Shown here piece by piece: positions 32,835 to 56,933 of a stretch of DNA of 64,000 bases. The DNA comes from Oscillospiraceae bacterium. Lineage in GTDB: Bacteria > Bacillota > Clostridia > Oscillospirales > Ruminococcaceae. The DNA lies in NCBI GenBank assembly GCA_900770195.1, contig CAAGJI010000041.1:43719-107718 (forward strand), given 5' to 3'. Position 1 is the stretch's first letter. Each line of letters starts with the position of its first letter. The translations under genes were made by a program, and so were the position numbers. The notes under the pieces are model-generated. The model saw only the letters and a list, made by a program, of their open reading frames with translations, was not told the origin of the DNA and did not search any database.

Positions 32835-33668
32835 CTATCTATTGTAATCAAAACTTGTACGTTCAGACTTAGCATCAGCTTTATTATTTTGATAGTATGT
32901 AGCAATATTAATTTCAATTGCTTCAGATAATGCTTCTGTTATTTCACTCCACTCGATTTTTCTCTGCAATTTACAACTGCAATAAAACAACAAACTCTCT
33001 CTTGCAATGCATCTTTGATTTACACACGACATATATAAGTTAACATCTAAATAATCCTTTTCTTCTTTGTTTTTCAATATTGATTTTATTAAATCAGTAA
33101 AATCAGGACTTGTTGCTTTTTCTCCTGAAAGAGAATAATTTCCATCAAGTGTTGAAAATCTATTGAAGGTTTTTTTAAATTCTTCAATACTGCTTGCTAT
33201 TATAATTTTTCCCGCTATTTTAGTGTATTTTGCAACCAGAATATATTCATCTGTCCACTCGCTTTTTTTAACAGAACATAATTCTAAAGTTTCATATGAT
33301 TCGGGTTTTTGTTCATTTGAATTTTCAAAACATTCCATTAGAATATCTTCAGCAGAAGAATTTTTCTTTTTTAAACAAAGGTAATATTCACAATCATTCT
33401 TTTCACTTAAAAGCAGAACTTCTTTATCAGATACCTGATTCAAAATATAAATTTCGTTATTTATTTTGGCAATTCCTGATGTAAAATACCAAGAATCACC
33501 ACTCTTTTTTAAAGAAAAACCGGAAACAATACCATCAGGATAATCTGAATACATATATTGACGTATTTTTTCAGAATAAATATTTTGCTTATTTAACGTT
33601 TCAGCCCGAAGAACTGTACCATTTTTAAAGTCAATGTTCAATTTTCTGCCGCATTCAATTGTATTCAT
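32835..33668 (-). CDS. Hypothetical protein (277 aa), last gene of the AT-rich island operon
   Basis: Its start abuts the upstream gene (12-nt gap). No recognisable domains. Confidence 0.5.
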   Translation of the reverse strand: MNTIECGRKLNIDFKNGTVLRAETLNKQNIYSEKIRQYMYSDYPDGIVSGFSLKKSGDSWYFTSGIAKINNEIYILNQVSDKEVLLLSEKNDCEYYLCLKKKNSSAEDILMECFENSNEQKPESYETLELCSVKKSEWTDEYILVAKYTKIAGKIIIASSIEEFKKTFNRFSTLDGNYSLSGEKATSPDFTDLIKSILKNKEEKDYLDVNLYMSCVNQRCIARESLLFYCSCKLQRKIEWSEITEALSEAIEINIATYYQNNKADAKSERTSFDYNR

Positions 33669-33679
33669 ATAATCAACCT

Positions 33680-36529
33680 CTATTTATTTCCATCAAAGAA
33701 AGTTTGTGAAGCATTTTCAACACATTTTGTTACCGGTTCTGATCTTGAGTATATTGATTCACCATTATTCATTTCTTTTTTTATAGTCAACGCAATTAAT
33801 TCAGAACCAAACTTATTTGGAAAAACTAAAAAATATCTTCCATCTTCTTTGTTTGATAATTCATCAATTACCTGCTGTTTATATTGCTTGTAAGACTGGT
33901 CATCTATCATTTGTCCAATTTGTTCTGTATTAATTGTTTTAGCGTTTTCAGCAGAAAGATTAACTGTAATATAATTTATTTCTTCTCCAAAAATATTTTT
34001 AATTTTAAGATTGATATGTTCTGTATTATCAGCAATTGAAATCGGATGAATCTCATCTTTATTTATTATCTGAACTTTATTGTCATTAAATTCCGTCCAT
34101 ACACTGTAGCTTATTTTTGCAGGATTGTTTTCAATTCTTGGCTTGATATTACCAAACTTTGTGTCATATTCATAATAAACTACACCACGAACACAAGATG
34201 TTTTAAGTTCTTCTGTGTTTTTATCATCTGTAACCGCTTTTTTCCTTACAACTTTTCTAAGCTTTTTGCCTGCAATAAATTCTTTCATAAGTTCATTAAA
34301 CAATCTGATTTTACAAGATTGTCCGGAAAATCTGTAAAATTCATAATCGGTATTTTGGTCATCGTGAAAAATTCGGCTAAGAAGATTATAAATATCTCCT
34401 CTGATTAAATCATTAACTTCCTGTGCTGTAATCGTTATTTTTGGCTGAACATCTTTTTCCACAAGCGTTTTTTCATCTGAACAAATATAAATAGAAAAAT
34501 CCATAGAATGTTCATTTAAAATATTTTCGTAGTTTTCACCTACAGCTTTATCAGAAGAATCAGTAAAACCGATAAATGTTAAACGGTCTTTTTTATAAAA
34601 TTCAGTTTTAATAATTTCAGCAAGATTCCAAAGGTAATAAAAATTTCTTTTGATTAAATTCTTTTTCTTTGCATATTTCGTAAGTTCGTTATCATCTTCA
34701 AATTTTGTCGGAATAAGTTTTTCAGCTTCTGCATATTCTTCTTCAAGCTTTTTATATACAGTTTTATATCCATTACCACACTTATCATTATTTTGACTGG
34801 CTTTATAATCTTCATCAATGTAACCCAACACTTCTTCCGGTAACGGAAGAAGATCTCTTACTGAAGTTGTATATTCATCACGACCTGCGTCTATCTCATC
34901 CAAATAGAAATTTGCAAGTTTTATTTTAACAAGCTGCATAATTCTGTATGTAATATTATTTCCGCCAAAATTAGATTCACCGTCCACAAATTCAGTTCTT
35001 ATAACAAGATTTTCAATATCATTATTTTTTTCTCTGCTGATTCTGCATGAAGCAACATCTGTTGTTCCTCCACCACAGTCAATAACCATCATATTAGCAT
35101 CTTTAAAGTGATTTTCTTTATCACGGATATTGTTTCTTATAGTCTCATAAATAACAGCTGTACCTTCATCTAAAAAATTGCCATCAACAACTTCAAATCT
35201 GCCTTTAAACATTTTTTTAAACTGATTTAAAAATTTTGTCTTTAATTTTACAGGTGAAGTAAAGTGAATTCTTTTAAATTTACATTTTGAATAAATCTCA
35301 GTTTTTTCAATTATATGCAAAAGATATGCTTTAACAAGTTCAAAATATTTGATTTCAGATTCATTTCCATCTTCGTCGGTTATATTTACACTTTTATCAG
35401 AATCAATTCCAAACCATCTTTTTATTTCAAAGAAAATTGAAGCGTCAGGTATATAATCATGTTCAATTAATGCTTTCTTTGCATCATAACCAAAAAGATA
35501 AGTGTTCTTTGATGAATCTTTTTCGCAATGTTTTACATAGATAAGTGTCGGAATAATATCTGACTGAACATATTTACCATCATCAAGAGAGTTTTCAAAT
35601 TTTACATTTACAAATCTTTTTGAATCATCAGCATCATTTACAAAATAACCTGCTGTAGTATTTGATGTACCAAAATCAATGCATAAAGGTGACTCTGATT
35701 CAGGTCTTTCTCTTTCAGTAATTTTAATTGAAACATATTTTATCTGAGAAATAATGCTGTCATCTAAAGTATAATTGCCGCTTTTTAAAACTGTTTCAAC
35801 TGACTTAGGGAAAAGCAATACTTTAAACTGTACATTATTTCCCCATGATTCATTTAAAATTGCATCTGTACCGATAATAATTCTGTATTCATTGCCACAC
35901 TTTTTAAGTTTACCTGCTGCCATCACTTTGTTTTCTTTGCTGACAACGGCTGTAAGTAAGTCTGAATATATATCACCATTAAAATCAATAAGCCCGATTT
36001 CGTCTTCAGCTGTAACAGCTTCACCCACAAAATGAATGTTATCTCCGGTACAATCAACGTTCTTATCCTCTTCAAAAACAGGATTTTTTGAAAGCACAAA
36101 ACCAATTTCATTCATCAGTTTTGAATAATCAATATTCAATTTTTCTTTTTCAGAAGGTGTTTTTTCAACTGCCTTTACAGTTTCTGTAGCTTTTGTTTCA
36201 GGTATTTTTGACTGAACAGCTTCATTTTTTTCAGGTTCTTTTGGTTTTGCAGTTTTTTTCACTTCAGCAACATCATTTTCAAGCAAGAAATTACTTATTC
36301 TTTTGATGGCATTCGGTTTTGCCTGTAATCGTTCCTTTTTGTTAAAAAATAAAACATTCGTTCCAAATTTTTCATTCAGACAATCCCCAATTGCTTTCAG
36401 GTCATCTCCGCTGACACTGTTCTCATTAATCCATTTTACAAATTCGTTTACGTCTTTAAATGATTCTTCAGAATCACCTCCAATTGCTCCCATAATTTCA
36501 GAATAATCTTCTTTAGTTAAATCACGCAT
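33680..36529 (-). CDS. Large divergent Hsp70-superfamily ATPase (949 aa) with ~300-aa N-terminal extension
   Basis: Hsp70 phosphate-1-like CIDFGTSNTTAGY and phosphate-2-like VIDCGGGTTDVA. The true start is the ATG at 36529 with an AAGGAGG RBS (ORF-track TTG at 36577 has none). Confidence 0.75.
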   Translation of the reverse strand: MRDLTKEDYSEIMGAIGGDSEESFKDVNEFVKWINENSVSGDDLKAIGDCLNEKFGTNVLFFNKKERLQAKPNAIKRISNFLLENDVAEVKKTAKPKEPEKNEAVQSKIPETKATETVKAVEKTPSEKEKLNIDYSKLMNEIGFVLSKNPVFEEDKNVDCTGDNIHFVGEAVTAEDEIGLIDFNGDIYSDLLTAVVSKENKVMAAGKLKKCGNEYRIIIGTDAILNESWGNNVQFKVLLFPKSVETVLKSGNYTLDDSIISQIKYVSIKITERERPESESPLCIDFGTSNTTAGYFVNDADDSKRFVNVKFENSLDDGKYVQSDIIPTLIYVKHCEKDSSKNTYLFGYDAKKALIEHDYIPDASIFFEIKRWFGIDSDKSVNITDEDGNESEIKYFELVKAYLLHIIEKTEIYSKCKFKRIHFTSPVKLKTKFLNQFKKMFKGRFEVVDGNFLDEGTAVIYETIRNNIRDKENHFKDANMMVIDCGGGTTDVASCRISREKNNDIENLVIRTEFVDGESNFGGNNITYRIMQLVKIKLANFYLDEIDAGRDEYTTSVRDLLPLPEEVLGYIDEDYKASQNNDKCGNGYKTVYKKLEEEYAEAEKLIPTKFEDDNELTKYAKKKNLIKRNFYYLWNLAEIIKTEFYKKDRLTFIGFTDSSDKAVGENYENILNEHSMDFSIYICSDEKTLVEKDVQPKITITAQEVNDLIRGDIYNLLSRIFHDDQNTDYEFYRFSGQSCKIRLFNELMKEFIAGKKLRKVVRKKAVTDDKNTEELKTSCVRGVVYYEYDTKFGNIKPRIENNPAKISYSVWTEFNDNKVQIINKDEIHPISIADNTEHINLKIKNIFGEEINYITVNLSAENAKTINTEQIGQMIDDQSYKQYKQQVIDELSNKEDGRYFLVFPNKFGSELIALTIKKEMNNGESIYSRSEPVTKCVENASQTFFDGNK

Positions 36530-36542
36530 TATATTTTCCTCC

Positions 36543-38630
36543 TTATAATTCAGATATTTCTCCAATAATCTGTTCAAAAATTTCTGTAATTGAATCTACA
36601 TCATCTGTAAGCCAAAGATATGATTCACCATTTGATCGTGTTGAAGAAATTTCTCTTAAAAATTCTTTTGTGCGAGAATTCAAACCTGTTCCAACAGAAA
36701 TTACAGTTACACCATCTGATTTAAGCTTATCCGCCTGAGTTTTAGCTGTAGTCATACTGTCAGGAGCTCCGTCAGTTAAAATGATTACAAAGTTATTTTC
36801 ACCTTTTTCAAATTCTTTCCTGATCATATCAAGTGACTGTGATAAAGGTGTTCCGCCGGATGCATATAAATTTTCGATTGCACTATTAAGCTGCTGTGCA
36901 TTATTGGACAATGGCAAATTAACTCCTGTTTTATAACCAAATTCAGCAATTCCTATTTTGTTATATGATAAATCAACAACATTATTAACAATATTTTTTG
37001 CAGCTTTTTTTGCATTATCCAAATTTTTACCACGCATACTTCCAGATGTATCAATTGACAGGAAAATATTCATCGGTTCGGGTACTGCCGCATCAAGTTT
37101 TTTCTGCAATTCATGTTTATCATATTCAATAACAATTTCTTCATGTGCATGAGTAAATTGGTCAACAGCAGAAACTTTTAAAATACGGCTCTCATCATAT
37201 TCAAAGGTAACATCAATCTTGACTTCTCCCTTTTTGCCTTTACGAATATTACCCAAAGCGAAACAACTTAAAAGTTCACTATTGCTAAGATCTCTTCTAT
37301 CTTCGTTTGCAATGTCCTTCGTTTCATATATTTCTATATTTACAGACTTCTGATTATCCTTTGAAGTGCTGAATGTCCTTGTATATGATGTAGGATATTT
37401 GCTTCCTCTTGGAAGCATTTCAGAAAATTTGCCGTCAGCTTTTACACCAAGCGAATGTGAAAGAATATCTGTTATTACAGGTTTGTTAGCCGACATACCG
37501 CCATAAATTGCAGATGAAACTGTATAAGCACCTTTAACAACAAGTGTCGCCAAATCCAAATCTGAATAAACTTTTCCGGAGAAAATTTCCTCTATTTTTT
37601 TGCCAATATACGGAATACTACAACTTCCTCCTGCCAAAGCAACACGCCATACATTGTCAGGTGTGATATTATTGTTATCCATAAATCTTTTGAATTTTGT
37701 AAATATCTTATCATATACACCCTGACAAATTTCATCAAACTCATCTCTTGTAAGTTCAACATCGAATGTATAATAATCATTTTTATATTGAAATAAATCC
37801 GGTTCAGTCACACTTGCACTTTCAGTATCAGTTAAATCTATTTTTACTCTTCTGGCAGCTCTGAGTAATTTAGATCTTATCTTATTATATTCTTTTTCAG
37901 GTAATTTTGACTTTTCAAGCGTTGATAAATCCAGATTAGTATCCGCTTCAACCATTTCAATCATAGCTTGTCTTATACATTCATCAAAATCATCACCGCC
38001 AAGCTTTTTATCACCATCGACAGCCAATGTTTCATATTCGTTCTTATCTGAATTATACTTCAGATAACTTAAATCAAATGTACCACCGCCGATATCTACA
38101 ACAAGGAGTTTTTTATCTTCAAGATTATCTGCACTTTCTGTTATGTAGGAAATTGCAGCAGCAGTAGGTTCAGTTATAATACGAACCTCTTTAAATCCTG
38201 CGGCTAAAGCAGCACGCTTTGTTGCGTCATACTGATTTCCCTGAAAATAAGCCGGAACAGTTATTACAGCTTTTATTTCGGTTGTTTCATCATATCCGTC
38301 TTTTTTAATAAACTTATAAATTGTTTCTTTTACTGATTTTAAAATTTCAGTTGCAACATCAACAGGAGTAAATTTTCTTCCGTCAATTAAATAGACCTTG
38401 TCGCTTCCCATATCTGTTTTTGAAGAACGAATAACATTATGCGGATTTAAATACCCATCTTCCGAAGCTTTTTTACCGATTGTTATCTCCCCGTTTTCGT
38501 AATAGAGAACAGATGGCAGAACATTTCCATCACCATTTTTAAACTTCAGACATTTTACTTTGCCTTTAATATCTGTACAAACAAGTGTATTGGTCGTACC
38601 TAAATCAATCCCAACATTTACCGATGCCAT
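36543..38630 (-). CDS. Hsp70-like ATPase fused to C-terminal von Willebrand factor A (vWA/MIDAS) domain
   Basis: NBD motifs VGIDLGTTNT, VVDIGGGTFDLS and ALAGGSCSIPYI, then an SBD-like region. The C-terminus has a vWA MIDAS (DTSGSMRG ... GGTPL ... ILTDGAPD). RBS AGGAGA. Confidence 0.8.
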   Translation of the reverse strand: MASVNVGIDLGTTNTLVCTDIKGKVKCLKFKNGDGNVLPSVLYYENGEITIGKKASEDGYLNPHNVIRSSKTDMGSDKVYLIDGRKFTPVDVATEILKSVKETIYKFIKKDGYDETTEIKAVITVPAYFQGNQYDATKRAALAAGFKEVRIITEPTAAAISYITESADNLEDKKLLVVDIGGGTFDLSYLKYNSDKNEYETLAVDGDKKLGGDDFDECIRQAMIEMVEADTNLDLSTLEKSKLPEKEYNKIRSKLLRAARRVKIDLTDTESASVTEPDLFQYKNDYYTFDVELTRDEFDEICQGVYDKIFTKFKRFMDNNNITPDNVWRVALAGGSCSIPYIGKKIEEIFSGKVYSDLDLATLVVKGAYTVSSAIYGGMSANKPVITDILSHSLGVKADGKFSEMLPRGSKYPTSYTRTFSTSKDNQKSVNIEIYETKDIANEDRRDLSNSELLSCFALGNIRKGKKGEVKIDVTFEYDESRILKVSAVDQFTHAHEEIVIEYDKHELQKKLDAAVPEPMNIFLSIDTSGSMRGKNLDNAKKAAKNIVNNVVDLSYNKIGIAEFGYKTGVNLPLSNNAQQLNSAIENLYASGGTPLSQSLDMIRKEFEKGENNFVIILTDGAPDSMTTAKTQADKLKSDGVTVISVGTGLNSRTKEFLREISSTRSNGESYLWLTDDVDSITEIFEQIIGEISEL

Positions 38631-38649: not shown

Positions 38650-39159
38650 TTAATAATTTTTATCTGCGAATGCATCTGAACTTTTAACTTTTTCATCATT
38701 TTGTTGTGGTTCCTGATCTATTTCAGAAATGCCATTTTCATCAGAATTTTCATCTTTTGCTTCATCTGCATTTTTCTTATCTTCAACATCTGAATATAAC
38801 GGAACAACCTCTTTATGTATATCGAGTATTTTTGTATTCAGATAATCAAGCCTCTCTTTCAGAAAATATTTCTTTCTTTCATCATCTTCTTTTGATTTTT
38901 CCATTTTTTCTTTAATATCATTAATACTCTGTGAAAAAGATTCAAGGGAATTTTCTATCTTTTCAAGAAGTTCAGATTTTTTCTTCTCAAGCTTGTCTAT
39001 TTTACTTTGAAGTTCTTCTTCTTTTTTCTGATAATTATTTTTAAGCAAACCAATACTACTGTCAAGCGAATCAACTTCATTACAAAGTTCTTTATTAATT
39101 TCCGTCATCATATCAATAACTTTTTTTAAATCATTGATTGTTTCTTTATAATCCTGCAT
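38650..39159 (-). CDS. Coiled-coil protein (169 aa), acidic C-terminus
   Basis: Heptad-rich and K/E-rich (EELQSKIDKLEKKKSELLEKIENSLESF). Confidence 0.55.
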   Translation of the reverse strand: MQDYKETINDLKKVIDMMTEINKELCNEVDSLDSSIGLLKNNYQKKEEELQSKIDKLEKKKSELLEKIENSLESFSQSINDIKEKMEKSKEDDERKKYFLKERLDYLNTKILDIHKEVVPLYSDVEDKKNADEAKDENSDENGISEIDQEPQQNDEKVKSSDAFADKNY

Positions 39160-39178: not shown

Positions 39179-39466
39179 TTATTCAATTGCCTTAAGCACA
39201 GCATTACGCATATTCTTAATTTCAAGATCCTTTGATTTTCTTATTTTTTCAATCTCTGCGTCTTTTGATTCTCTTATTTCATTGATCTCTTTATTTTTAT
39301 CTCTTGTTAACTCTGCAATTTTATTATTTCTTTCTTCAATAATCTGATTTTTTTTATATTCGAAATTGGCCTCCATTTGATTAAAATCATTTTCAATTTC
39401 ACCAAGAATCTTATCTGCAATTGCTTTTAAATCGGCAATATTTTGCTTGTATGAATTAATATCCAT
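39179..39466 (-). CDS. Coiled-coil protein (95 aa)
   Basis: K/E-rich heptads. RBS GGAGG. TAATG stop/start overlap with the upstream Hsp70-like gene. Confidence 0.55.
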   Translation of the reverse strand: MDINSYKQNIADLKAIADKILGEIENDFNQMEANFEYKKNQIIEERNNKIAELTRDKNKEINEIRESKDAEIEKIRKSKDLEIKNMRNAVLKAIE

Positions 39467-40974
39467 TATATTTCCTCCACTATGATATTTTCTTTGCCAA
39501 GCGACTCATTTTTATGTCCATAAACCTCAGCTTCTATTCTGCCATCGTAACAGATTTTCAAGTCAAAAACTTCTGCTGTATCATATTTGCTGTCTGATAA
39601 ATCAAGATAACCTAAATATATTTTTTCAGATTTAGGAGTAAACTTCTGATAGAACTTCATATATCTTCTTCCATCATCAAATTTAGTTAATGTCAACGGC
39701 TTTTTTATTGTTTTATTTTCATATAACGTCTGCCTGTTAAGATAAACACCTGTATTTTCAAACTCGCCGACAATCTGATATGCACTTCTGTTTTCAAATT
39801 TAATATTTGTATTTTCTGACAGCATACCCGCATAATATGCTGCACCCAACGCAACATACCCCATATTTTCATCTTCATCAAAATCTCCTATTTCATCAGT
39901 TTCAAAATATTCTTCCAAAATATTTCGAAAATACGGTATACCCGATCCGCCTCCGATAAAATGTACACTTATTTCATCTTCATCTTTGTAAATATCTGAT
40001 TCTTCAAGCATATAATCAAACATTTTAACAAGTTTTTCTTTCAATGAATTTTTATTCAAGATGTCTTCAATTTCATCAGACGTGAAATGATAATTTATAT
40101 CTATGTTTTCGTTATTTCTTTTTATATAATACTCATCATCAACTTCATCATCTTCATCTGAATACATTCTGACTTTTTTATTATCAATCTCATGAACGAA
40201 ATGGTATCCACGTTCTTTCAAAAGTTTCCTTTCATTTGGTGTTACCGATGGAAAAATAATGTCATTTATAATGCTTTCTGTTAAATCACTTCCGCCATAT
40301 TTAATACCATATGATGAAAGAACTGTTACCTTGAAATTATCATCTATGCATTTGATTTTTATTACAGCGGCATCTATTGTACCTCCGCCAAAATCAAAAA
40401 TGAAAAAGTTTTTCTCATCTCCATCATCAGCATCTTCAAAGAAATCCTTTGTTTCTTCAAACGAAAAAAAAGCTGCAACAGGTTCAGATATTACTGCATC
40501 AACATTTATTTTTGCCAATTTAGCTGCTTTTTTAATTCGGTTTATCTGCATTTCTGAATACATAACAGGAAAAGTTATAACTGTCGTATTTGGAATATTT
40601 CCACCTTTTTTTGTAACCATTCTATTATATATCCAGGAAAATATTTCACCTGATAATTCAACTGCATCAGCTTCATATCCGTCGTGAAATTTTATATTCC
40701 AGTTTTCTTCGCATAAATGTCTTTTCACATTGTATACAAACTTCATTTTGTCTGCATCAATATCATAAAGCAGATTTTCTGCGGCTGAACCAATTTCAAA
40801 CTCATAATTTCCGTCTTTTCTTTTATTTCGTGTAATTATATTTGGTTCACATCTTTTTCCGTTTATATTATTTGACAACTTTTGCGGTGTAACTTTTTTA
40901 TTTTCATATGAAGCTACCTTCAGATTTGTTGTTCCGAAATCTATCGCTAATGAATAATTTATTTCTTTTGACAT
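39466..40974 (-). CDS. Divergent Hsp70-like ATPase (502 aa)
   Basis: AIDFGTTNLKVA, FIFDFGGGTIDAAV and FIGGGSGIPYF. Confidence 0.75.
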   Translation of the reverse strand: MSKEINYSLAIDFGTTNLKVASYENKKVTPQKLSNNINGKRCEPNIITRNKRKDGNYEFEIGSAAENLLYDIDADKMKFVYNVKRHLCEENWNIKFHDGYEADAVELSGEIFSWIYNRMVTKKGGNIPNTTVITFPVMYSEMQINRIKKAAKLAKINVDAVISEPVAAFFSFEETKDFFEDADDGDEKNFFIFDFGGGTIDAAVIKIKCIDDNFKVTVLSSYGIKYGGSDLTESIINDIIFPSVTPNERKLLKERGYHFVHEIDNKKVRMYSDEDDEVDDEYYIKRNNENIDINYHFTSDEIEDILNKNSLKEKLVKMFDYMLEESDIYKDEDEISVHFIGGGSGIPYFRNILEEYFETDEIGDFDEDENMGYVALGAAYYAGMLSENTNIKFENRSAYQIVGEFENTGVYLNRQTLYENKTIKKPLTLTKFDDGRRYMKFYQKFTPKSEKIYLGYLDLSDSKYDTAEVFDLKICYDGRIEAEVYGHKNESLGKENIIVEEI

Positions 40975-48331: not shown

Positions 48332-49009
48332 TTATCCAAGATACATTTCTCCGAGTACCATAGTATAATCATACCCAATAAACGGTAAATGTTCTCCTTT
48401 CCACATTATTTCAATATTACGCTTTATATCGCAAAGAAAATACTTTGCTAAATTTACTATGTCAATATCCTTTTCATTTTTTTCTTTATGAATATAGATA
48501 TAAGTAACTTCCGAACTTTTCTGATGATATATATTTATCAGCTTGTAATTCAGTTCAAGAAATTTTTCAAACATATTTTCTCTGTTTCCACTTAACAGAT
48601 ATTCTGAATAACAATTAAGCAATATATACCTTGTTTCATTGCTGCAACTAAGATATAACTCTTTTATTCTGTCATCAAATTCATTGTTCAATATTTTGTT
48701 TTCAATATTCATTGAATAAATATCATATATTGAAAACCCGCTGTTTCTGTCAAACATTGCCTGAAAATGAATAATCAAATTAAAAAAATCTTTATATTCA
48801 GGATTATTTTTATAATCATCAACAAGATTATTATACTTTTCTTCAGAATCAATAAATTTTTTTGAAAAAAACAAGTCAAACAATCGAGGCAACACATTGA
48901 CAAGAGTATTTTTTGTTTCTGTATTCCAGACTTCAACACCCGAAACTATATTTTCAACAGCAAGTTCATACTGTTTCTGACTTGAATAATCATTCCAGAT
49001 ATAACTCAT
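48332..49009 (-). CDS. Hypothetical protein (225 aa)
   Basis: Stop/start adjacency with the downstream gene and an ATGA overlap with the upstream gene. Confidence 0.5.
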   Translation of the reverse strand: MSYIWNDYSSQKQYELAVENIVSGVEVWNTETKNTLVNVLPRLFDLFFSKKFIDSEEKYNNLVDDYKNNPEYKDFFNLIIHFQAMFDRNSGFSIYDIYSMNIENKILNNEFDDRIKELYLSCSNETRYILLNCYSEYLLSGNRENMFEKFLELNYKLINIYHQKSSEVTYIYIHKEKNEKDIDIVNLAKYFLCDIKRNIEIMWKGEHLPFIGYDYTMVLGEMYLG

Positions 49010-50160
49010 ACTTTTACACCTACCCAGAAAAAGTTTGGATAATTATATCTCATAAAAGCAATAAAATAATTAACCCTGTCAATAAAGAAATTATCTATTC
49101 CTGAATCTTCAAAACAAAGATAACAATAATTTTTATTCCTCCTGCTTATCTCTGATAAATCATTATAACTGTAGTTATAATCCCTTGTGTAAGCTTTTAT
49201 CGCTTCTTTAGTATTAGATAAACTAAATCCTTTATATTCATCAGGATAATGATAATATGCATCAACAGCAAGCTTTATATCTGCCTCAGTAAATATATTT
49301 TTCGAAACTACCGAAATTTCATCTTTCAGCTTAGGCGAAAACATATATGATGATTTATTTATTTTATTTTCGTGAATTTCTATTTTCATAAAATCAATAT
49401 CTGAATCTGATTTCACATAAACATATTTATCAGTAATTTTAATCAAATGATAAATATCAAATCTATTTTCAGGTATTATAAATGAATTTTCATCACGGTT
49501 ATATCTGTCAAACTCTTCATCGGCAATAACAGCTTTCACAGACCTCAGTCTTAATTGATTACTTGAAGTTATCGACACATTCCACATAAGTGTTCCCTGA
49601 ACAGCCCCTGATATCTGACTTAAATCATAATTATTTCTTTTTAAATTTACAGGTTCATATTCATTTGTTTTTTCATTCAATTCAAACAATTTAAAAGCAC
49701 GTCTTGAGTACGGTGAATATATATATGGCTGATGTATATTATATAATTTAAACAAATTCGCTATTATTTTTTCCTTTTTAACAAATATATCAGTCTTTTC
49801 AAGCTTGATTTTTTTGCCGTCCTCTGTTTTTTCATAATCATTTACTTTATCATAAGGACAATCAATAAAAATAATATTACTATCATCTTCACTCAAATCC
49901 AGCATAGGATTAAAAATATTGTCGATATTTTCTTTATCTTTTTTTAAAAAAGTAAATATTTGCGGAACTGTATTTTCTTCAGTATTTTGACTGATAACAT
50001 TTTTTTCTATATGCGAAAAAAATTCCTTTTGTCTGTCAATAACAGATTCTGCCAATGTTTTAAAAAATTCTTTCTGATTATCCTTTAAACCATCTGACTT
50101 TTCTAATAACTCTTCTATTTTTATTTTCTTTAAATAACTGTTTTGATTTTTATTATCCAT
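49006..50160 (-). CDS. Hypothetical protein (384 aa)
   Basis: RBS GGTGA. No recognisable motifs. Confidence 0.5.
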   Translation of the reverse strand: MDNKNQNSYLKKIKIEELLEKSDGLKDNQKEFFKTLAESVIDRQKEFFSHIEKNVISQNTEENTVPQIFTFLKKDKENIDNIFNPMLDLSEDDSNIIFIDCPYDKVNDYEKTEDGKKIKLEKTDIFVKKEKIIANLFKLYNIHQPYIYSPYSRRAFKLFELNEKTNEYEPVNLKRNNYDLSQISGAVQGTLMWNVSITSSNQLRLRSVKAVIADEEFDRYNRDENSFIIPENRFDIYHLIKITDKYVYVKSDSDIDFMKIEIHENKINKSSYMFSPKLKDEISVVSKNIFTEADIKLAVDAYYHYPDEYKGFSLSNTKEAIKAYTRDYNYSYNDLSEISRRNKNYCYLCFEDSGIDNFFIDRVNYFIAFMRYNYPNFFWVGVKV

Positions 50161-50172: not shown

Positions 50173-51567
50173 TCATATAATATTAAATTTTCCCGTTGTA
50201 ACATTAACATCTTTTGATGCATTAACTTCTAAACTATTTGCTGTCAACAAAATTTTTCCGTTTCCAATATTGGAAATAATATTTTTGTCTGTAATTTTTA
50301 TTTCTGCTTTTCCGCCAACATTTGAATTAATCTGATTTTTATCAATCACAAATTTATTTTTATCACTGCCTAAAACGATAGAATCATTTTTCAAAGTGAT
50401 ATTATATTCTTTGTTTTTAATATAAATTTCATTTTCATTTATTTCTCCAATATAATCCCATGCTTCAAAAGCGATTTTTTCTTTTTCTATCACACAAGTT
50501 TTATCATATATCTTTATGCTTTTATTGTCAGGATTTTTTATTTTCTCTGCAACAGCTTTTTCTCTTACACAACCATATGCAAAACATTTGTTATTCTGCA
50601 TAATAACTTCTACAATTTCATCAACGTCAGGGACAAAAAATGTTCCGCCATCTTTTGCCGTAAAATTATTAATATACTGAATCCATACCTTTTTATCATT
50701 TATAGAATCTTCAAGTTCTGTAAATTCAACCTGAATCCTTCCAAGATTTTCTTTATCTTTATTATCGGTTACTCTTGCTCTTCCAAGTGAAATTAGATTT
50801 ATCTGATTTTCCGGTTGCTTTTTGTCTTTTAAAATTCTTTCGATTTTGTAATAATACCTTGTATTGTCATCTTTGTATATTACATATGAATAAATCACAA
50901 CATACCATTGACCACTATAATTCACTTTAGTTCCTAATTCTATATACTCTTTATATTCAAACTCGATTATTTCACTATATTCTGTTATACTAATTTTAGC
51001 AGAAATAATATCTTTTTCTTCAAGTGTGAACACACTGTTTAATGAATCATCAATAACAATCTGATTATTTTCACGCTGATTTGAACAAACAAAGAGTTTC
51101 GTATCATTTTCATCTGCAATTCTGTTTGCAAACTGAAAATCCGTTTCATTTTGCTGAACAACCACATCTTCAACTGTTTTTGCAGATATATTTTCTTTTT
51201 TTATTTCAAAAGCAGCTTTATTACTTATCTTTTCAAATATATCTTTATATTTTTTCTCGGGAGACTGATAAACCCTGCTTATTTCAATTGTGTCAGACTC
51301 AATAGAGTCTGACACAACCAAAACATTAACAGCAGCACCTGAATAAGTACTCTGACCTTCAATATTCTTTATTTTACCGCACATAACAAGTTTGCTGTCA
51401 ATATCTGCTTCAACATAAGTATTAGTTTTAACAAACGAAAACAGTTCATAATTATTTTTTAAATCATTCGGAACTATATCAATGTGCATAACGGCATGTT
51501 TACCGCATTCCTTCTCAACTGATATTTTTCTTATTCTTCCTTTTACGGAAAGACTGCTGTTAATCAT
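50173..51567 (-). CDS. VgrG / phage gpD-gpV-like spike protein (short form, 464 aa)
   Basis: gpD/VgrG-like QQNETDFQFANRIADENDTKLFV. gpV OB-fold-like VWIQYINNFTAKDGGTFFVPDVDEIVEVIMQNN. C-terminal beta-helix-like repeats (ITLKNDSIVLGSDKNKFVIDKN...). Confidence 0.6.
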   Translation of the reverse strand: MINSSLSVKGRIRKISVEKECGKHAVMHIDIVPNDLKNNYELFSFVKTNTYVEADIDSKLVMCGKIKNIEGQSTYSGAAVNVLVVSDSIESDTIEISRVYQSPEKKYKDIFEKISNKAAFEIKKENISAKTVEDVVVQQNETDFQFANRIADENDTKLFVCSNQRENNQIVIDDSLNSVFTLEEKDIISAKISITEYSEIIEFEYKEYIELGTKVNYSGQWYVVIYSYVIYKDDNTRYYYKIERILKDKKQPENQINLISLGRARVTDNKDKENLGRIQVEFTELEDSINDKKVWIQYINNFTAKDGGTFFVPDVDEIVEVIMQNNKCFAYGCVREKAVAEKIKNPDNKSIKIYDKTCVIEKEKIAFEAWDYIGEINENEIYIKNKEYNITLKNDSIVLGSDKNKFVIDKNQINSNVGGKAEIKITDKNIISNIGNGKILLTANSLEVNASKDVNVTTGKFNII

Positions 51568-51582
51568 TTTTCACTCCATTTA

Positions 51583-52065
51583 TTATTCTACTTCAATATA
51601 CTGATCATAATTTCCGTTTTTCTGTACAAGATAAAGCTCAAATAAACCGTTATCGTTTTCACCATTTAAATTTTCAGATGGGAAATTTTCAGTAGGAATT
51701 TCATATCCTTCTGTATAATCAATAACAAACATATTTTCTATTTCATAAGATCTAAGCATTTCACTGTTTGAAGTACTTACATATGTTTCAAGTTTTACTT
51801 TTCGATAAATAAGATCCGAATCTGTTTCCTTAGACCAATTTGCAACATCACAAGTAGCTTTCTTGTTATTTGCTGTTATTCTTCCGATTACCCTTATTTC
51901 AGCTCGCACATCATTACTTCTTGCAATTGCGTCATCATTTAATGTGTTTGATTTGTAAGAAGCAGCGATAATATCTTCTTTGCCCTGATGTTCATTTTTC
52001 ATTGAAGATAAAACAATTTCTCCGCCCTTTGAGTCTGTTATTGTTAATCTGTATCCAAGTGCCAT
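51583..52065 (-). CDS. Hcp / tail-tube-like protein (160 aa), tentative
   Basis: Its size, its MA..hhhhI.D.KG N-terminus and its position between a large protein and the spike all fit a tube protein. The call is weak. RBS GGAGG. Confidence 0.4.
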   Translation of the reverse strand: MALGYRLTITDSKGGEIVLSSMKNEHQGKEDIIAASYKSNTLNDDAIARSNDVRAEIRVIGRITANNKKATCDVANWSKETDSDLIYRKVKLETYVSTSNSEMLRSYEIENMFVIDYTEGYEIPTENFPSENLNGENDNGLFELYLVQKNGNYDQYIEVE

Positions 52066-52069
52066 AATA

Positions 52070-54310
52070 TCATTCCTCCGTATTTTCTATTTCTAAATTA
52101 TCAAACTTGTCTTCTTTATCATTGTTAGTAAATTTAACATATGAATAAAGTTTTCCATCTTTTTCTTTACATCCGAATTCTTCCCCATTATAAAGCGGAT
52201 TATTAATGCATCCATCATAACGGTTCCATCTATGATCTGATTTATATTTGTCAAGATTTTTCTTTGAAATTGTTGATTCACCATTTGCAGCTTCATAAAA
52301 AATAAAATCTTTAACTAAAGTTGTAAAAATTCTATTTTCACCCTTAGCCATATTTCTTGCATATTTCACGAATGAATTTTTGACCTTTTCATTGTTATAA
52401 TATCCACAGCAATCGAAAAAGAAACCAAATGGTTCTTCGCTAAGTTCATCAATTAAATCCTTATCATAAGAAAGAATCTCTTCACAATTCATATTTGATA
52501 TAACTTTGTATTTGTTGTCTGAATCCTCAAAATCAAATCTTACACATACCTTAGGAAGATCTTTATTTACATTAAATTTCATCTTTTCAAGCTGCCTGCT
52601 GTCAAGTGACTTTATCACAAGTCCCGCTGCAACATATGGTGCATCTAAATACAGACCGGGATTCTGAATTGTTTCTCCAGCTGCTACCTGTATATCGCCT
52701 GCCTGTATTCCTGACATAAGTGTAAAATTCGGATAAGCAAAGACTGAATATCTGCTATTAATTATGTCTAACTTCTTTTTATATGTATCCAAAACACTCT
52801 TATTCATCTTACTAAAACCGGTTTTTTCACATCCTTTGTAACCAAAAAATGTTGTACACTTTGCTTCAGAAAGAATATCTATTATCTGTTTTGCAGTATC
52901 CAAAGAAATCAGATCCTGTTTTACTTCTGCTTCATCATCATCGTCAAGATTAATATCATCATCTATTTCAAAATCAACATTTTCATTTTGCTCAATATCA
53001 ATAACTTCGTCTTCATCATTTACAGATTCATCAGCATCAGGAATATCAGGAGTATAGAGTCTGCCTGCATTATCTCTGTTAACCAGATCTTCGTCATAAA
53101 TTTGCGGAAGCACAGCAAACCAGATTCTTTTTTCTATATTCCCATTTATGTTGGTCATATATTTTTTAAAATTTTCTTTTATATCTTTATCACTTACTAT
53201 TTCATCTGCTATACAATTAGCAATTATAACAGAACAGTTTCCGCCTGCATTATCGAATAAAGCCTTAACATCTATAATTTTTTCTATTATCTTGTTAATT
53301 GCTTTTAAAAGACTATCCTGTGATGCTTTATAAAAAGCTTTTTGAACCTCATATCTTTTCTTGAGTTTTGGAATGTCTTCACTCGCAACAATACCCGTAT
53401 TATCCGAATATGCTGAGATTACAAGTTTCTTAGTGTAAGAATCACTTTCTGAAGTATTCTCGTTGCCCCCAATGTTAGATTCCAGCAATTTAGTTGCCTG
53501 ATTATTAGCTCTTGTTTCAAGACTTATTGTCTGATTTACATTATTATTAACATCAGTAACTAAAACTTTTTCCTTTACTATATCACCGTCAGAATTATAT
53601 GCCAGTCTGTAAGTATCTCTTTTTGTTGTACTAATTTCTACGGAAGATGACTTTCCATTTTCGTCAGAGTTGATTCCCAGCTTTTTTTGCAAATCCGCAA
53701 CATTTAAACATAAAAGAGCTGTCGGATTATCCCTATATGTTTCGTTGATTTCTGTTATAGTATTTTTTATTTTTTTAGCATAAGATTTCTGTAAAGCCGT
53801 ATTTTTATTATCTTTTGCTTCCAGACACTTCTGAACTAAATAAAGATATTCTCTTCTTTTACTTTTTATCTCTTTAAGCATAGTACTTGGAGATATAAGC
53901 TTTGAAAAACAACTATAGTCAAATTCATAATTTGATTTTCCTGCAACAGCTTTTTTTTCATACATATCAATTGCTGCTTTATAAAAAGCAGTTCTTTCAA
54001 ATTTCATCGGAAGAGCTTCCGGAATATCCGATGGATCTGTTGAATAAACAAAATATCCACCATTATCGTCCTTCTGAAATCCCTGATATAAATCTGGAGC
54101 AAATCTTTCAAGAAAATCATCAAAACTGCTTACTTCAAGTCCTACAACATCAAACTGTTTGTAGTTAAATGTATCTGTATCAGGATCAACAGCACCCTTT
54201 AATGCATTTAAAATTGAAAGAGGTCTCTCTTTGCCAGCAATTTTGGCTGATACTTTATCATTGAATTTTTCAAGGACAAGTACTCGGTTAATACTATCAA
54301 TTTTTCCCAT
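52070..54310 (-). CDS. Large hypothetical protein (746 aa), candidate sheath-like component
   Basis: The true start is the ATG at 54310 with an AAGGAG RBS (ORF-track TTG at 54346). An acidic central linker (DEDEVIDIEQNENVDFEIDDDINLDDDDE) is present. The sheath assignment rests on gene order only. Confidence 0.5.
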   Translation of the reverse strand: MGKIDSINRVLVLEKFNDKVSAKIAGKERPLSILNALKGAVDPDTDTFNYKQFDVVGLEVSSFDDFLERFAPDLYQGFQKDDNGGYFVYSTDPSDIPEALPMKFERTAFYKAAIDMYEKKAVAGKSNYEFDYSCFSKLISPSTMLKEIKSKRREYLYLVQKCLEAKDNKNTALQKSYAKKIKNTITEINETYRDNPTALLCLNVADLQKKLGINSDENGKSSSVEISTTKRDTYRLAYNSDGDIVKEKVLVTDVNNNVNQTISLETRANNQATKLLESNIGGNENTSESDSYTKKLVISAYSDNTGIVASEDIPKLKKRYEVQKAFYKASQDSLLKAINKIIEKIIDVKALFDNAGGNCSVIIANCIADEIVSDKDIKENFKKYMTNINGNIEKRIWFAVLPQIYDEDLVNRDNAGRLYTPDIPDADESVNDEDEVIDIEQNENVDFEIDDDINLDDDDEAEVKQDLISLDTAKQIIDILSEAKCTTFFGYKGCEKTGFSKMNKSVLDTYKKKLDIINSRYSVFAYPNFTLMSGIQAGDIQVAAGETIQNPGLYLDAPYVAAGLVIKSLDSRQLEKMKFNVNKDLPKVCVRFDFEDSDNKYKVISNMNCEEILSYDKDLIDELSEEPFGFFFDCCGYYNNEKVKNSFVKYARNMAKGENRIFTTLVKDFIFYEAANGESTISKKNLDKYKSDHRWNRYDGCINNPLYNGEEFGCKEKDGKLYSYVKFTNNDKEDKFDNLEIENTEE

Positions 54311-54314
54311 TAAA

Positions 54315-54893
54315 CTATTCTCCTTTAAATATTTTTCTAAATCCAAGTCCGATAAAATTTTCTTTTTTCAACTTTTCATACAATATATCAGTAACATAAA
54401 CTGCATCTGAAGTTGAACCGAGAATGCGAAAAATATTATATCTTCCGCACGCACCTGGAATTATTATTGGATTTTCTATATTATAAAATGGAACTATTCC
54501 ATCATTATAATCATATTCATCTGCATCAATTATACCGCTTTTCTCAAAATCAATGCAATCAATTCTTGGAACTGAAACAATCCAGAAAATTTCTTCAATT
54601 CCCACAATATCATCTGAAATAATTACTTTTTTGTAAAACAAATAGTTTACTCTGCAGCTATCCAGAAAAGACTTTAGTTTGTCTGAAAAAAAAAGCAAAT
54701 CTTCACAACGCATTATATCAGGAATATCTATACCTCCTGATTCATCAATTGATATTGTTTCAGCGTCATCATTCAGCATCCATAATTCATCTCTGTAAAA
54801 ATGCGTTTTCAATTTTCTTATATTATCATTTATCAACGGAATTATATAATTTTCCGATATTGATAAAATATTTATTTTATAAATTTCTGACAT
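54315..54893 (-). CDS. Hypothetical protein (192 aa), putative immunity protein for the upstream AHH toxin
   Basis: It lies immediately downstream of the toxin gene with a 1-nt gap and has an RBS GGAGA. It is acidic with no TM. Confidence 0.45.
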   Translation of the reverse strand: MSEIYKINILSISENYIIPLINDNIRKLKTHFYRDELWMLNDDAETISIDESGGIDIPDIMRCEDLLFFSDKLKSFLDSCRVNYLFYKKVIISDDIVGIEEIFWIVSVPRIDCIDFEKSGIIDADEYDYNDGIVPFYNIENPIIIPGACGRYNIFRILGSTSDAVYVTDILYEKLKKENFIGLGFRKIFKGE

Positions 54894-54894
54894 T

Positions 54895-56559
54895 TTAATT
54901 CTCCAAAATATTATCTATTCTTTCTCTTATTATTCTTACAGGAGATTCATAATACATTTCTCCATTTTCTCTGCCTTCTGCAAATAAAATTATTTTCTGT
55001 TCATTTTTTTCACAGTAATCAGATACAGACTTTTCCACAATAGTATCATTAATAACATATTCCCTGTCTTTATCGATTTTCCACGGAATTACATATTCAC
55101 TATCTGTAAGATTTATAAAATACCTGACATTTTCAGCAAATTTTATAAATGAAATATCGTCTTTTATTTCAAATTCATCTAAATTTGAAAACAATATTTT
55201 GTAATTGTCTTTCTGAAATCTTGTAACATTTAATTTCACAGCATAAAATGAACTTTTTTTGTATTTTTCAAATTTATATATAATAATAATCTTTTTTCTT
55301 TTTGGAACATCAAAAGCAAATTTAAAAGCTTCCTTTGAAACATAAAATGGATAACTTTTTTTATATCCCTTTTCAAAGTCAAGTAATTTGTTCATAATCC
55401 TATTTGAAATATGATTCATATTACTTATAAATCGCTTTCTTTTTTCATCATAATTACTTTTGCGGCAGGAATTTTTTTTGTATCTGGATTCAAGCAAATT
55501 AATCTCATGGTCAACTGCTTCAACATAATTTCTGTAAAATTCTATATCTGATGAAGAAACTTTTTCAAGATACTTGCTGATTTCATCAATAGTTTCAGGT
55601 TCTAATGTATATTTATGTCCTCCCACGTGCCATTGCTGTTTCATCAAATCCATCGCAATATATCCATTTGCCTGCTTGACAGTTCCTTCTTTCCCTTCAA
55701 AGGAATGTGTTGTTGGCAATAAAACACAATTATCCGCATTATTTATATCATATTTGTAAAAATTGGCAAGCTTAACAAGATAAGGATGTTTAGCGAAAAT
55801 CTGATTTCCGGAAATAATATGATGTGCTGCCTTACTCCAATTTCCCTCTGTTGATTCCTCATTCTTTTCTTTATTTTTCTCTATATATGTATCATATTTC
55901 TCTTTATATTGATTTTTAAAATTATTTTCAAGTTCTGACGCAGAATTATTAATAGCCGACGCAGAATGTGAAGCTTTTATATAATCACATTTATCTCTTT
56001 CGCAGCAGTTCTCGTAATCACAAAGAGCGTATTCACAATAAAATTTATAATCTGTTTTTTTCTTATCATCATTTTCAATTTCAGATTTTCTTTCTTTTTT
56101 TAACTGATTTTCTTCATTTAAACTATCTGCATTATGTTCTGAAGTATCGCTGAATGAATCTGAAATTGTTGTTTTATTCCCTATATTTGCAATATCTCCA
56201 GCTTCATAAAGAAAAGAAGGACTTTTTTTCTTTTCATTTATTTTAGACGGAACAGGAGCGGATAATTTTTTAATTTTTGAACCCAGAGGACATAATATAT
56301 AAGATTTATCAGTTAACGCTGACTTTCCCTGTATTAATAATTTTGAACTTGTATTGCACCATAAACCACTTACAACTGCACACGAACAAGGTACATTATT
56401 TTGTTTAGGGCAAATTCCCGGAATTTGAAGTTTCAATGTTGAACAATTTGTCAAAACTTTAGATTTATCGGAAAATGCTTTTGCTAAAGCAACTGAAGCG
56501 GAAAAGGTTGTAGTACTGCACTCGCATTTAAAAATACAATTTTCAGTCAACTCTTTCAT
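54895..56559 (-). CDS. PAAR-like (DUF4280) - AHH nuclease polymorphic toxin
   Basis: N-terminal Cys-rich DUF4280 pattern (KCECS ... IPGICP ... CSCAVVSGLWCNTSSKLLIQGKSALTDKSYILCPLGSKI). AHH signature AAHHIISGNQ ... NCVLLP ... HVGGHKYT. The start is the ATG at 56559 with a GAGGGGAG RBS. The ORF-track extension has none. Confidence 0.7.
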   Translation of the reverse strand: MKELTENCIFKCECSTTTFSASVALAKAFSDKSKVLTNCSTLKLQIPGICPKQNNVPCSCAVVSGLWCNTSSKLLIQGKSALTDKSYILCPLGSKIKKLSAPVPSKINEKKKSPSFLYEAGDIANIGNKTTISDSFSDTSEHNADSLNEENQLKKERKSEIENDDKKKTDYKFYCEYALCDYENCCERDKCDYIKASHSASAINNSASELENNFKNQYKEKYDTYIEKNKEKNEESTEGNWSKAAHHIISGNQIFAKHPYLVKLANFYKYDINNADNCVLLPTTHSFEGKEGTVKQANGYIAMDLMKQQWHVGGHKYTLEPETIDEISKYLEKVSSSDIEFYRNYVEAVDHEINLLESRYKKNSCRKSNYDEKRKRFISNMNHISNRIMNKLLDFEKGYKKSYPFYVSKEAFKFAFDVPKRKKIIIIYKFEKYKKSSFYAVKLNVTRFQKDNYKILFSNLDEFEIKDDISFIKFAENVRYFINLTDSEYVIPWKIDKDREYVINDTIVEKSVSDYCEKNEQKIILFAEGRENGEMYYESPVRIIRERIDNILEN

Positions 56560-56637
56560 ATTTACTCCCCTCACCCAAAACAACAGATATAATAAATTTA
56601 ACGCAAAAATTAATTCAGAGTGTGTTAAAATAAATAT

Positions 56638-56652
56638 AAAAAAAAAAAAAAA
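56638..56652. repeat. Homopolymeric A15/T15 tract in the island operon leader
   Basis: It lies between the island promoter and the first RBS. Confidence 0.9.
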
Positions 56653-56673
56653 CAATGTACACTCCCACAAAAT

Positions 56674-56702
56674 ATTATACACTGTTTTCTTCTAAAAGTC
56701 AA
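56674..56702 (-). promoter_or_regulatory. Sigma-A consensus promoter for the island operon
   Basis: On the minus strand: TTGACT, a 17-bp spacer, then TG-TATAAT. Confidence 0.55.
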
Positions 56703-56933
56703 GTAGGTATGCAAATATTATCTACTTTTTGCGAATTTTGTAATGAAAATAAAGTGTATTGCCTCTTGGCTATTATTTTTACAAACCAAAATAAAAATTT
56801 TCCTTCTTAATTATTTATTCGCTGAATACTCAAATATAATTCTATCAAAAAAATTTGAAGCTCACAAATCACAAGCATCTTCTCATTCCCAATAAATATA
56901 ATAACACATTTTTAAACATATATAAATATAAAA

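Follow-up and report, generated by a model that had tools for sequence, protein, structure and literature searches.

A candidate contractile injection system encoded together with Hsp70-superfamily ATPases in an 18-gene operon of an Oscillospiraceae bacterium

Contractile injection systems (CIS) are among the chief means by which bacteria fight one another and interact with hosts, and their engineering for the delivery of proteins is under way. Gram-positive Firmicutes had been regarded as essentially free of them save for tailocins, and a metagenome survey of 2025 placed the CIS of the human gut almost only in Bacteroidota (PMC12210884). Firmicutes also carry DUF4280 (PAAR_H2) and Phage_GPD genes that lie without type VI secretion system (T6SS) or extracellular CIS (eCIS) neighbours (Lays et al. 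2016, PMC5349215; Zhang et al. 2021, PMC8651086). These scattered DUF4280/VgrG genes have been an acknowledged puzzle since 2016, and among the DUF4280 papers since 2022 in the literature searched we found none that resolves it. Here we analyse an operon of 18 co-directional genes located at 32835-56559 on the minus strand of the window, i.e. the whole stretch of 64,000 nucleotides (nt) taken from contig CAAGJI010000041.1 of an Oscillospiraceae bacterium (GCA_900770195.1). The genes are named g1-g18 in transcription order according to the open reading frame (ORF) listing. We think it fairly likely that the operon is a previously unclassified Firmicutes CIS lineage joined to Hsp70-superfamily ATPases that do the work of assembly, recycling and control.

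Divergent members of the Hsp70 superfamily are known from several conflict systems, namely CoCoNuT type III with CnuD (PMC11090510), GAP1-N2 GTPase systems with Hsp70/GrpE/DnaJ (PMC7159879), fusions of DnaK-like proteins to EACC1 proteases (PMC12642450), and TerY-P triads. A paper coupling CIS with Hsp70 was not found in the literature searched, which was not exhaustive. The view of the preliminary description that this gene combination is unlike any described system is therefore upheld within that literature, and the combination of sheath and tube with Hsp70-type ATPases may explain the orphan "type VI-like" spike genes of Gram-positive gut bacteria. By its sheath, tube, spike and tip the locus is a CIS; it has neither the membrane complex and ClpV of a T6SS nor the AAA+ ATPase, cap and fibres of Afp/PVC eCIS.

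Predicted injection genes and Hsp70-type ATPases of the operon

The spike, tip and toxin genes were recognised by Pfam. The first gene, g1 (54895-56559, 554 amino acids (aa)), joins a PAAR-like tip (DUF4280) and a nuclease toxin of the AHH (HNH/EndoVII) type in one protein. The DUF4280 match has an E-value of 3.5e-6 and 28 bits against a cut-off of 26.3, and the AHH match (E 1.6e-4) reaches 22.0 bits, just under its cut-off of 22.3, with the motif KAAHHIISG (AAHH) present. Homologs of g1 in sister loci are only about 110 aa long and consist of DUF4280 alone. One nt downstream of g1 lies g2 (54315-54893, 192 aa), an Imm11 immunity protein (Pfam Imm11, E 3.7e-8). AHH and Imm11 form a documented toxin/immunity pairing (PMC3482391), and judging from their domains g1 and g2 would be a Tox-AHH/Imm11 polymorphic toxin-immunity pair. 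The VgrG-like spike is encoded by g5 (50173-51567, 464 aa), which matches Phage_base_V with E 7.8e-11 and Phage_GPD weakly with E 5.7e-5, both NCBIfam matches (VgrG_rel and TssI) being under cut-off. On these matches, g5 and g1 would provide the spike and PAAR-type tip of a CIS. The preliminary description had proposed a spike/toxin module in this place; its DUF4280-AHH, Imm11 and Phage_base_V parts are found, and the module also holds a predicted sheath and tube.

These two candidates were obtained by structure prediction. The product of g3 (52070-54310, 746 aa, or 758 aa from an upstream TTG) is predicted to have a contractile-sheath fold with large helical insertions, the model being of medium confidence, and that of g4 (51583-52065, 160 aa) is predicted to have the Hcp/tail-tube fold. 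For both, the best structural matches come from extracellular/cytoplasmic CIS and R-type tailocins, and neither has a match in Pfam, NCBIfam, PHROGs, PADLOC or PDB sequences. The order of sheath, tube and spike genes (g3-g4-g5) is typical of tails. This gene order and the strict linkage of g3 to g4 support the identification of g3 as the sheath, which we take as probable, not certain, since a Foldseek search of PDB did not recover the similarity. As modelled, g4 and g3 would supply the inner tube (Hcp/gp19 fold) and the contractile sheath expected of a CIS. Among 1.84 billion library proteins the sheath family accounts for about 205 representative clusters. As to the tube family, one g4 homolog (P0224) is attributed to a metagenome-assembled genome (MAG) of the archaeon Methanobrevibacter, for which horizontal transfer and binning contamination are both possible. 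Distant members P0221 and P0230 are named "membrane-associated protease 1" in NCBI/UniRef, which is at odds with the predicted Hcp/tail-tube fold and is probably a propagated misannotation.

Five further genes encode the ATPases. Three of them were detected with Pfam HSP70: g10 (43037-44608, 523 aa, E 1e-47), a lidless Hsp70 with the nucleotide-binding domain and part of the substrate-binding beta domain; g13 (39466-40974, 502 aa, E 7e-24), a nucleotide-binding-domain protein; and g16 (36543-38630, 695 aa, E 1e-83), which has nucleotide-binding and substrate-binding beta domains followed by a C-terminal vWA domain (VWA, E 1e-20). The Pfam HSP70 match stops at model position 524 of 599, short of the helical lid. 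The other two, g9 (44628-47654, 1008 aa) and g17 (33680-36529, 949 aa), have no Pfam hit and no NCBIfam Hsp70-family hit, and were recognised by profile-profile comparison over the nucleotide-binding domain (hhalign to the Hsp70 profile, 99.0% with E 4e-18 and 99.4% with E 3e-21, respectively). In the alignments of both families the phosphate-1 (DFGT), phosphate-2 (D-x-GGGTTD) and adenosine motifs are invariant. Both proteins bear extra domains of 250-300 aa at both ends; in g9 a variable N-terminal region precedes the nucleotide-binding domain (about 293-817), and a conserved C-terminal domain follows it. A PDB-sequence profile search with the g9 family gave only a marginal hit to the DnaK nucleotide-binding domain. 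On sequence criteria all five can be assigned to the Hsp70/actin (ASKHA) ATPase superfamily, in agreement with the five diverged ATPases of 502, 523, 695, 949 and 1008 aa put forward in the preliminary description, whose motifs and sizes were correct (three by Pfam, two by hhalign).

In order to be ordinary DnaK/HscA/HscC paralogs, an outcome that would have spoken against the initial proposal, these proteins would have to score far higher than they do. The best NCBIfam DnaK/HscA/HscC scores are 286 bits for g16, 169 for g10 and 96 for g13; overall they range from 85 to 286 bits against cut-offs of 620-1019, g10 scoring 126-169 bits with DnaK/HscA models having cut-offs of at least 620. Profile scans found no J-domain or GrpE gene in the window operon. 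We rejected this assignment because the scores are far under the cut-offs, the lid is missing and DnaJ/GrpE are not encoded.

Conservation, modules and layout of the locus

We scanned metagenome contigs with a 7-sequence sheath alignment and scored the resulting 80 loci with hidden Markov models (HMMs) of the window gene families. Many of these loci are near-identical strains, which was handled by clustering only. Linkage counts were taken from the 33 sheath loci of at least 15 kb; the sheaths form 10 clusters at less than 50% identity. The tube is present in 33 of the 33 long loci, and so is at least one Hsp70-superfamily gene; all 10 clusters carry Hsp70-like genes. Seen from the sheath side, the link to Hsp70-like genes is thus obligate among these loci. 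Among the Hsp70-like genes, g17 accompanies sheath and tube most constantly (24 of 33 loci, and also Lysinibacillus); g9 occurs in 11.

The whole gene set of the operon recurs at 55% identity in locus L004, and also in Megamonas funiformis (L091). Several Selenomonadaceae genomes have the full set with g8-g9 ahead of the CIS genes, not after them. The gene combination has therefore survived rearrangement and is shared by two classes of Firmicutes, and the recurrence of multi-Hsp70, Hsp70-vWA and VgrG-like genes in other genomes, which had been suggested as a check, is borne out by these genomes.

Three architectures were seen. Architecture A is that of the window. In architecture C, g1-g7 are followed directly by g17-g18: L095 shows g7 and then g17-g18, and the gene content of L099 and L152 is the same. 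Architecture B was found in human-gut contigs and in Lysinibacillus (L089/L090, Lysinibacillus telephonicus). Here Hsp70-vWA comes first, then the sheath, two tube paralogs, one J-domain protein and two FHA proteins; PP2C, another PP2C-like protein, g17, the g6 homolog, g7 and g18 follow. In the Bacillales variant the J-domain, FHA and PP2C genes are interleaved between the tube gene and g6/g7/g17, and the Lysinibacillus locus additionally encodes a Ser/Thr kinase. One type-B locus (L145; SCPN01000445.1, 2994-21990) has immediately upstream of it an Agr-like quorum-sensing set consisting of a radical SAM protein, a LytTR response regulator, a GHKL kinase and AgrB. A 549-aa type-B protein was considered as a hidden VgrG and rejected (hhalign 0.3%); it resembles a PP2C domain with helical repeats.

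Comparative genomics shows that the conserved core consists of sheath, tube, g6, g7, g17 and g18. The window operon is this core with two modules, g8-g9 and g10-g16, inserted between g7 and g17. The second module holds two lidless Hsp70s, coiled-coil proteins and the Hsp70-vWA fusion. Three of the core proteins, namely g6, g7 and g18, have no robust Pfam family and no significant PDB-sequence hit, and no weak Pfam family recurs consistently among members of the g3, g4, g6 and g18 families. The 384-aa g6 (49006-50160), which is co-conserved with sheath and tube and may be a baseplate or initiator part, is found in all architectures, its 438-aa homolog of type B matching by hhalign at 96%. The 225-aa g7 (48332-49009) is likewise co-conserved with sheath and tube, with HMM hits in 31 of the 33 long loci plus Lysinibacillus. 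The 277-aa g18 (32835-33668) always follows g17. In the g18 family one member weakly matches bacterial Death-like domain 3 (E 7.6e-4), which serves as an adaptor in prokaryotic conflict systems; none of the six others does, and we take it as a hint only.

The g8-g9 pair has a much wider distribution of its own. More than 3386 homologs of g9 occur in Clostridia, Bacilli, Negativicutes, Campylobacterota, Gammaproteobacteria, Zetaproteobacteria, Fusobacteriota, Bacteroidota, Fibrobacterota and Spirochaetota. A g8-like gene stands beside the g9 homolog, usually directly upstream, in 54 of the first 87 loci (by HMM, in 51 of 79 genome loci). The pair is most often accompanied by two small proteins and a HerA/FtsK-type ATPase (about 1000 aa) that matches PADLOC mad8 and generic HerA models. 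This cassette recurs across many phyla, as in L007 (4717-13105), L009, L013, L018, L044, L045, L052, L025 and L088, and among the genes nearby are PemK, Abi_alpha, dynamin-like, PIN and GmrSD. On the Acinetobacter piscicola plasmid NZ_CP048660.1 (L088, 33722-45516) it lies beside a WYL regulator and a HEPN protein, and there its proteins are annotated as hypothetical except for the ATPase ("ATP-binding protein"). The HerA-like cassette with g8-g9 looks like an uncharacterised conflict/defence system of its own, and in some lineages the CIS seems to have taken over its Hsp70-like g8-g9 module. The small cassette proteins C4/c16 were also compared with tube proteins and rejected as hidden ones (hhalign 0.1%). 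In L073 (a Fusobacterium MAG) and L077 (Selenomonadaceae, 9689-3516) we observed tandem arrays of three or four g9-like paralogs of about 930-1130 aa each; the array of L077 lies immediately upstream of the CIS genes and suggests diversification of the ATPase.

The remaining proteins are mostly coiled coils. At least four lysine- and glutamate-rich (K/E-rich) coiled-coil proteins had been described, and g8, g12, g14 and g15 are of this kind, with 23-32% K+E and matches limited to generic coiled-coil models. g8 (47657-48331, 224 aa) is identified as the coiled-coil partner of g9 by its adjacency to g9 homologs, and against tape-measure PHROGs it gives merely weak coiled-coil-type hits (E about 2e-3). 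g12 (40987-42270, 427 aa) has only generic coiled-coil hits, and its homologs come after g10 in the Selenomonadaceae and Megamonas loci. g14 (39179-39466, 95 aa, 29% K+E) and g15 (38650-39159, 169 aa, 31% K+E) have only spurious ones. The 255-aa g11 (42251-43018) has no family hit and is conserved only in close relatives.

As to the layout, the ORF listing confirmed that all genes are on the minus strand and counted 18 of them, not the 19 given in the preliminary description, with no space for another. Tight packing also stands, with intergenic distances of -20 to +19 nt (given earlier as 1-20 nt or overlaps). Gaps of at most 19 nt together with start/stop overlaps would indicate translational coupling. 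The GC content of 32835-56703 is 29.8% as against 35.0% in the flanks overall, 34.5% in the left flank and 37.3% in the right one, in line with the 28-30% estimated by eye. The third-position GC of the block (0.20) is within the range of the neighbouring genes (0.16-0.32), and therefore composition alone is no proof of foreign origin. The drop in GC is real but modest; we rejected a foreign island argued from composition alone, and the label of an AT-rich island is only weakly supported by composition.

A promoter-like site, TTGACT-17-TATAAT, is located upstream of g1 at 56674-56702 on the minus strand. It is the best such site of the region (11/12), as had been proposed, but the total of promoter-like sites in the region is not above the expectation from shuffles, and the argument for the site at 56702-56674 is positional only. 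Between this site and the g1 ATG at 56559 there is a 5' untranslated region (UTR) of about 110 nt with a strong GAGGGGAG ribosome-binding site. Within this UTR, past the promoter-like site and ahead of the ribosome-binding site, runs a homopolymeric T15 tract (56638-56652, coding strand); slipped-strand mispairing can make tracts this long variable. The gene upstream of the operon is closed by a strong terminator with a 14-bp stem at 57148-57118. Inside the block there is no strong terminator, as claimed before, but there is a weak one with a 5-bp stem at 40782-40770, the sole terminator-like site on the minus strand. No flanking tRNA was found at the block.

Identical or near-identical copies of the operon are present on human-gut metagenome contigs, and the closest named relative is a Ruminococcus callidus MAG. 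Directly downstream (29568-32631 and beyond) are two FMN_bind genes, Fer4, ApbE, heptaprenyl diphosphate synthase component I, NusG_II and a dockerin-bearing PBP-Tp47, annotated via L001/L002. This set is reminiscent of loci for flavin-based extracellular electron transfer, and the dockerin fits a cellulosome-type Ruminococcus.

Proposed mechanism and competing explanations

We propose that g6, g7 and g18 form a platform for the assembly of the tube and the toxin-tipped spike, and that the sheath polymerises around tube and spike. Contraction would then drive the spike and its AHH DNase into a neighbouring cell, with Imm11 guarding the producer and its kin. The ATP-dependent jobs of ClpV, ClpB or Afp15-type AAA+ proteins may be done by the Hsp70-type ATPases; their catalytic motifs are intact, and sister variants encode a dedicated J-domain protein, in type B directly after the tube gene. 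These ATPases would keep the subunits and the toxin-loaded spike competent for assembly and would dismantle the contracted sheath, as Hsc70 uncoats clathrin, for which the helical insertions of g3 are a plausible handle. They may also gate assembly or firing, and the coiled-coil proteins and the vWA domain may act as scaffolds or tethers. The g8-g9 pair could be a borrowed sensor/regulator module that serves HerA-type conflict systems elsewhere. The suggestion of the preliminary description, a chaperone machinery dedicated to the injection module, fits the strict co-occurrence of sheath and tube with Hsp70-like genes; the support is partial in that the operon is composite, g8-g9 being found mostly without injection genes. 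A bolder form of our proposal is that monoderm Firmicutes (among them abundant human-gut Ruminococcus) and diderm Negativicutes such as Megamonas own a cell-associated T6SS-like weapon whose sheath and tube are beyond profile detection and in which Hsp70-type ATPases replace ClpV/AAA+ and possibly the baseplate and membrane complex, the sister variants adding a J-domain protein and control by FHA/PP2C (in one locus also a kinase). We put this forward tentatively, as a possibility that is rather less than even.

Several results weigh against a CIS of this kind. The main weakness is that neither a membrane anchor nor a baseplate nor a way through the monoderm wall was detected for a cytoplasmic device: a membrane-spanning segment is absent from all 18 proteins, none of which has a hydrophobic 19-residue stretch of at least 1.6 on the Kyte-Doolittle scale, and Pfam, NCBIfam, PHROG and PDB-sequence profiles gave no baseplate wedge (gp25/TssE, gp6/TssF, gp7/TssG, TssK), tube initiator, tape measure, terminator/cap or tail fibre, although g6, g7 and g18 are candidates for baseplate parts by their co-conservation. 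Type-B loci have no VgrG or PAAR gene within 10 kb, and injection may not be a universal function. Part of the operon may also act independently, as g8-g9 lacks CIS genes in 72 of 79 genome loci and is accompanied by the sheath in 7. The lack of membrane segments in 18 of 18 proteins would suit an intracellular defence device, i.e. a tail-like assembly that is fired in the producer and brings about regulated cell death or abortive infection once Hsp70-like sensors detect phage proteins or proteotoxic stress. Intracellular precedents are the cytoplasmic CIS of Streptomyces and the thylakoid-anchored CIS of Anabaena. In the Gram-positive Streptomyces, a cytoplasmic CIS that mediates cell death has been documented (PMC10066040), and the same explanation would draw on the defence-island-like contexts of g8-g9 (PemK, Abi_alpha, dynamin, PIN, GmrSD, HEPN and WYL genes, with the HerA-like partner), on the many sister loci having DUF4280 without a toxin domain and on the type-B loci without a detectable spike. 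However, a polymorphic AHH nuclease fused to the tip and accompanied by its cognate Imm11 is a hallmark of toxins directed at neighbours and not of self-killing, and the Agr-like quorum-sensing cassette beside type-B loci suits antagonism at the level of populations. The system is also not listed by PADLOC and has no evident phage-related trigger, and we consider the defence device unlikely.

If the CIS genes and the ATPases were uncoupled, the operon would be shared by two or three independent systems, a toxin/CIS cassette and one or two Hsp70-based conflict/chaperone systems (g8-g9; g10-g18). The mostly CIS-free occurrence of g8-g9 and its different position relative to the CIS genes in Ruminococcus and Selenomonadaceae would be expected from this, as would the loci in which Hsp70-vWA and g17 (with g18 in L005 and L016) stand beside g8-g9 without a visible CIS gene, the flanks being short there. 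It is hard to reconcile with an Hsp70-like gene in every long sheath locus across 10 divergent clusters and at least 5 architectures, with g17-g18 directly after g7 in the simplest loci, with the Bacillales variant that interleaves J-domain, FHA and PP2C genes among the core genes, and with the translational coupling that the short gaps and overlaps indicate, which makes independence quite improbable. Phage ancestry was considered as well, since the folds of sheath, tube and spike derive from phage tails and the GC is below that of the flanks; the operon would then be a remnant of a degenerate prophage tail or an R-type bacteriocin (tailocin) with stress-chaperone paralogs. No PHROG assignment was obtained and no PHROG family matches g3-g8; g9 has no relative in phage genomes, and the sheath family is absent from the viral contigs scanned. 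Capsid, baseplate, fibre, lysis and integrase genes and a flanking tRNA are missing, the Hsp70 paralogs are far under the DnaK/HscA cut-offs, and the set is conserved among Oscillospiraceae, Negativicutes and Bacillales under evident selection. Such a remnant is accordingly highly improbable, and an identity with a known prophage, integrative and conjugative element or annotated system, which would have undone the initial proposal, finds no support in PHROGs, in PADLOC (weak PDC-M61B matches only) or in the viral-contig scan for the sheath. The CIS lineage with Hsp70-type ATPases remains the explanation we prefer. The initial interpretation is only partly supported, because function is inferred, g8-g9 is mostly CIS-free, the phage-defence alternative retains a modest probability and the association is partly contained in PMC5349215 and PMC8651086.

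Comparison with known systems

If our reading is true, a CIS lineage in common gut commensals escapes current detection profiles, and there is another solution to the energy-dependent steps, in which Hsp70-type ATPases (with J-proteins in sister variants) replace AAA+ unfoldases. The orphan-spike question would also become testable through a concrete gene set of sheath, tube, g6, g7, g17 and g18. The g8-g9 pair with the HerA-like cassette is a separate and widespread candidate conflict system.

T6SS, especially the Francisella T6SS-ii (IglG as DUF4280 tip, ClpB for sheath recycling) and the Bacteroidota T6SS-iii, share with the operon a sheath, an Hcp-like tube, VgrG and a PAAR-like tip with nuclease and immunity gene. 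An ATP-dependent chaperone class is encoded with the apparatus in both cases, although it is AAA+ in T6SS and of the Hsp70 superfamily in the operon. T6SS build their sheath from TssB and TssC, whereas in the operon one protein of about 750 aa, bearing large helical insertions, would form it. The operon is also without TssJLM, detectable TssE/F/G/K, TssA and ClpV, and its host is monoderm. As to the membrane complex (TssJ/L/M), there was no TssL or TssM profile hit and no membrane protein among the 18; Pfam found no AAA+ protein (ClpV/ClpB) encoded in the operon, and g3 has no VipB or TssC profile match. The FHA and PP2C genes of the sister variants and the Ser/Thr kinase of Lysinibacillus resemble the control of T6SS by Fha1, PppA and PpkA.

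The same spike-and-tip logic is found in Afp/PVC, AlgoCIS, Streptomyces CIS-Sc, Anabaena tCIS, haloarchaeal CIS/T6SS, pyocin R2 and diffocin, and some of the known eCIS, cytoplasmic CIS and tailocins work inside or from a monoderm cell. These systems are, in contrast to the window operon, visible to standard profiles; they have a conserved baseplate, a cap and a tape measure, and in many cases fibres and an AAA+ ATPase. The parts of Afp/PVC eCIS, i.e. the Afp15-type AAA+ ATPase, the Afp16 cap, fibres and tape measure, were not found in the operon by Pfam, NCBIfam or PHROGs. The quinone-transporting filaments of Bacillota, for which we checked the paper, are unrelated.

The Hsp70-containing conflict systems share with the window divergent and often lidless Hsp70-like ATPases, coiled coils, vWA, kinase/PP2C pairs, HerA/FtsK-type ATPases and a defence-island flavour, and g8-g9 with its HerA-like cassette resembles them in style. 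The window has no McrB GTPase, HEPN, tubulin, GrpE or caspase-like protease, and those systems in turn have no sheath, tube or spike genes. CoCoNuT, MoxR-vWA ternary and GTPase-Hsp70 systems were rejected as assignments since the operon lacks the McrB, MoxR or GTPase components that define them. A listed defence system was rejected as well: with 14 of the 18 window proteins scanned against PADLOC-DB v2, the Hsp70-like proteins gave only the weak PDC-M61B matches mentioned above. With canonical DnaK/HscA/HscC the ATPases have in common the fold and intact catalytic residues, and g10 and g16 keep the substrate-binding beta domain. Finally, the papers on orphan DUF4280/Phage_GPD genes of Firmicutes gave no sheath, tube or accessory machinery, whereas here a predicted sheath, a predicted tube and Hsp70-like partners are identified beside such genes.

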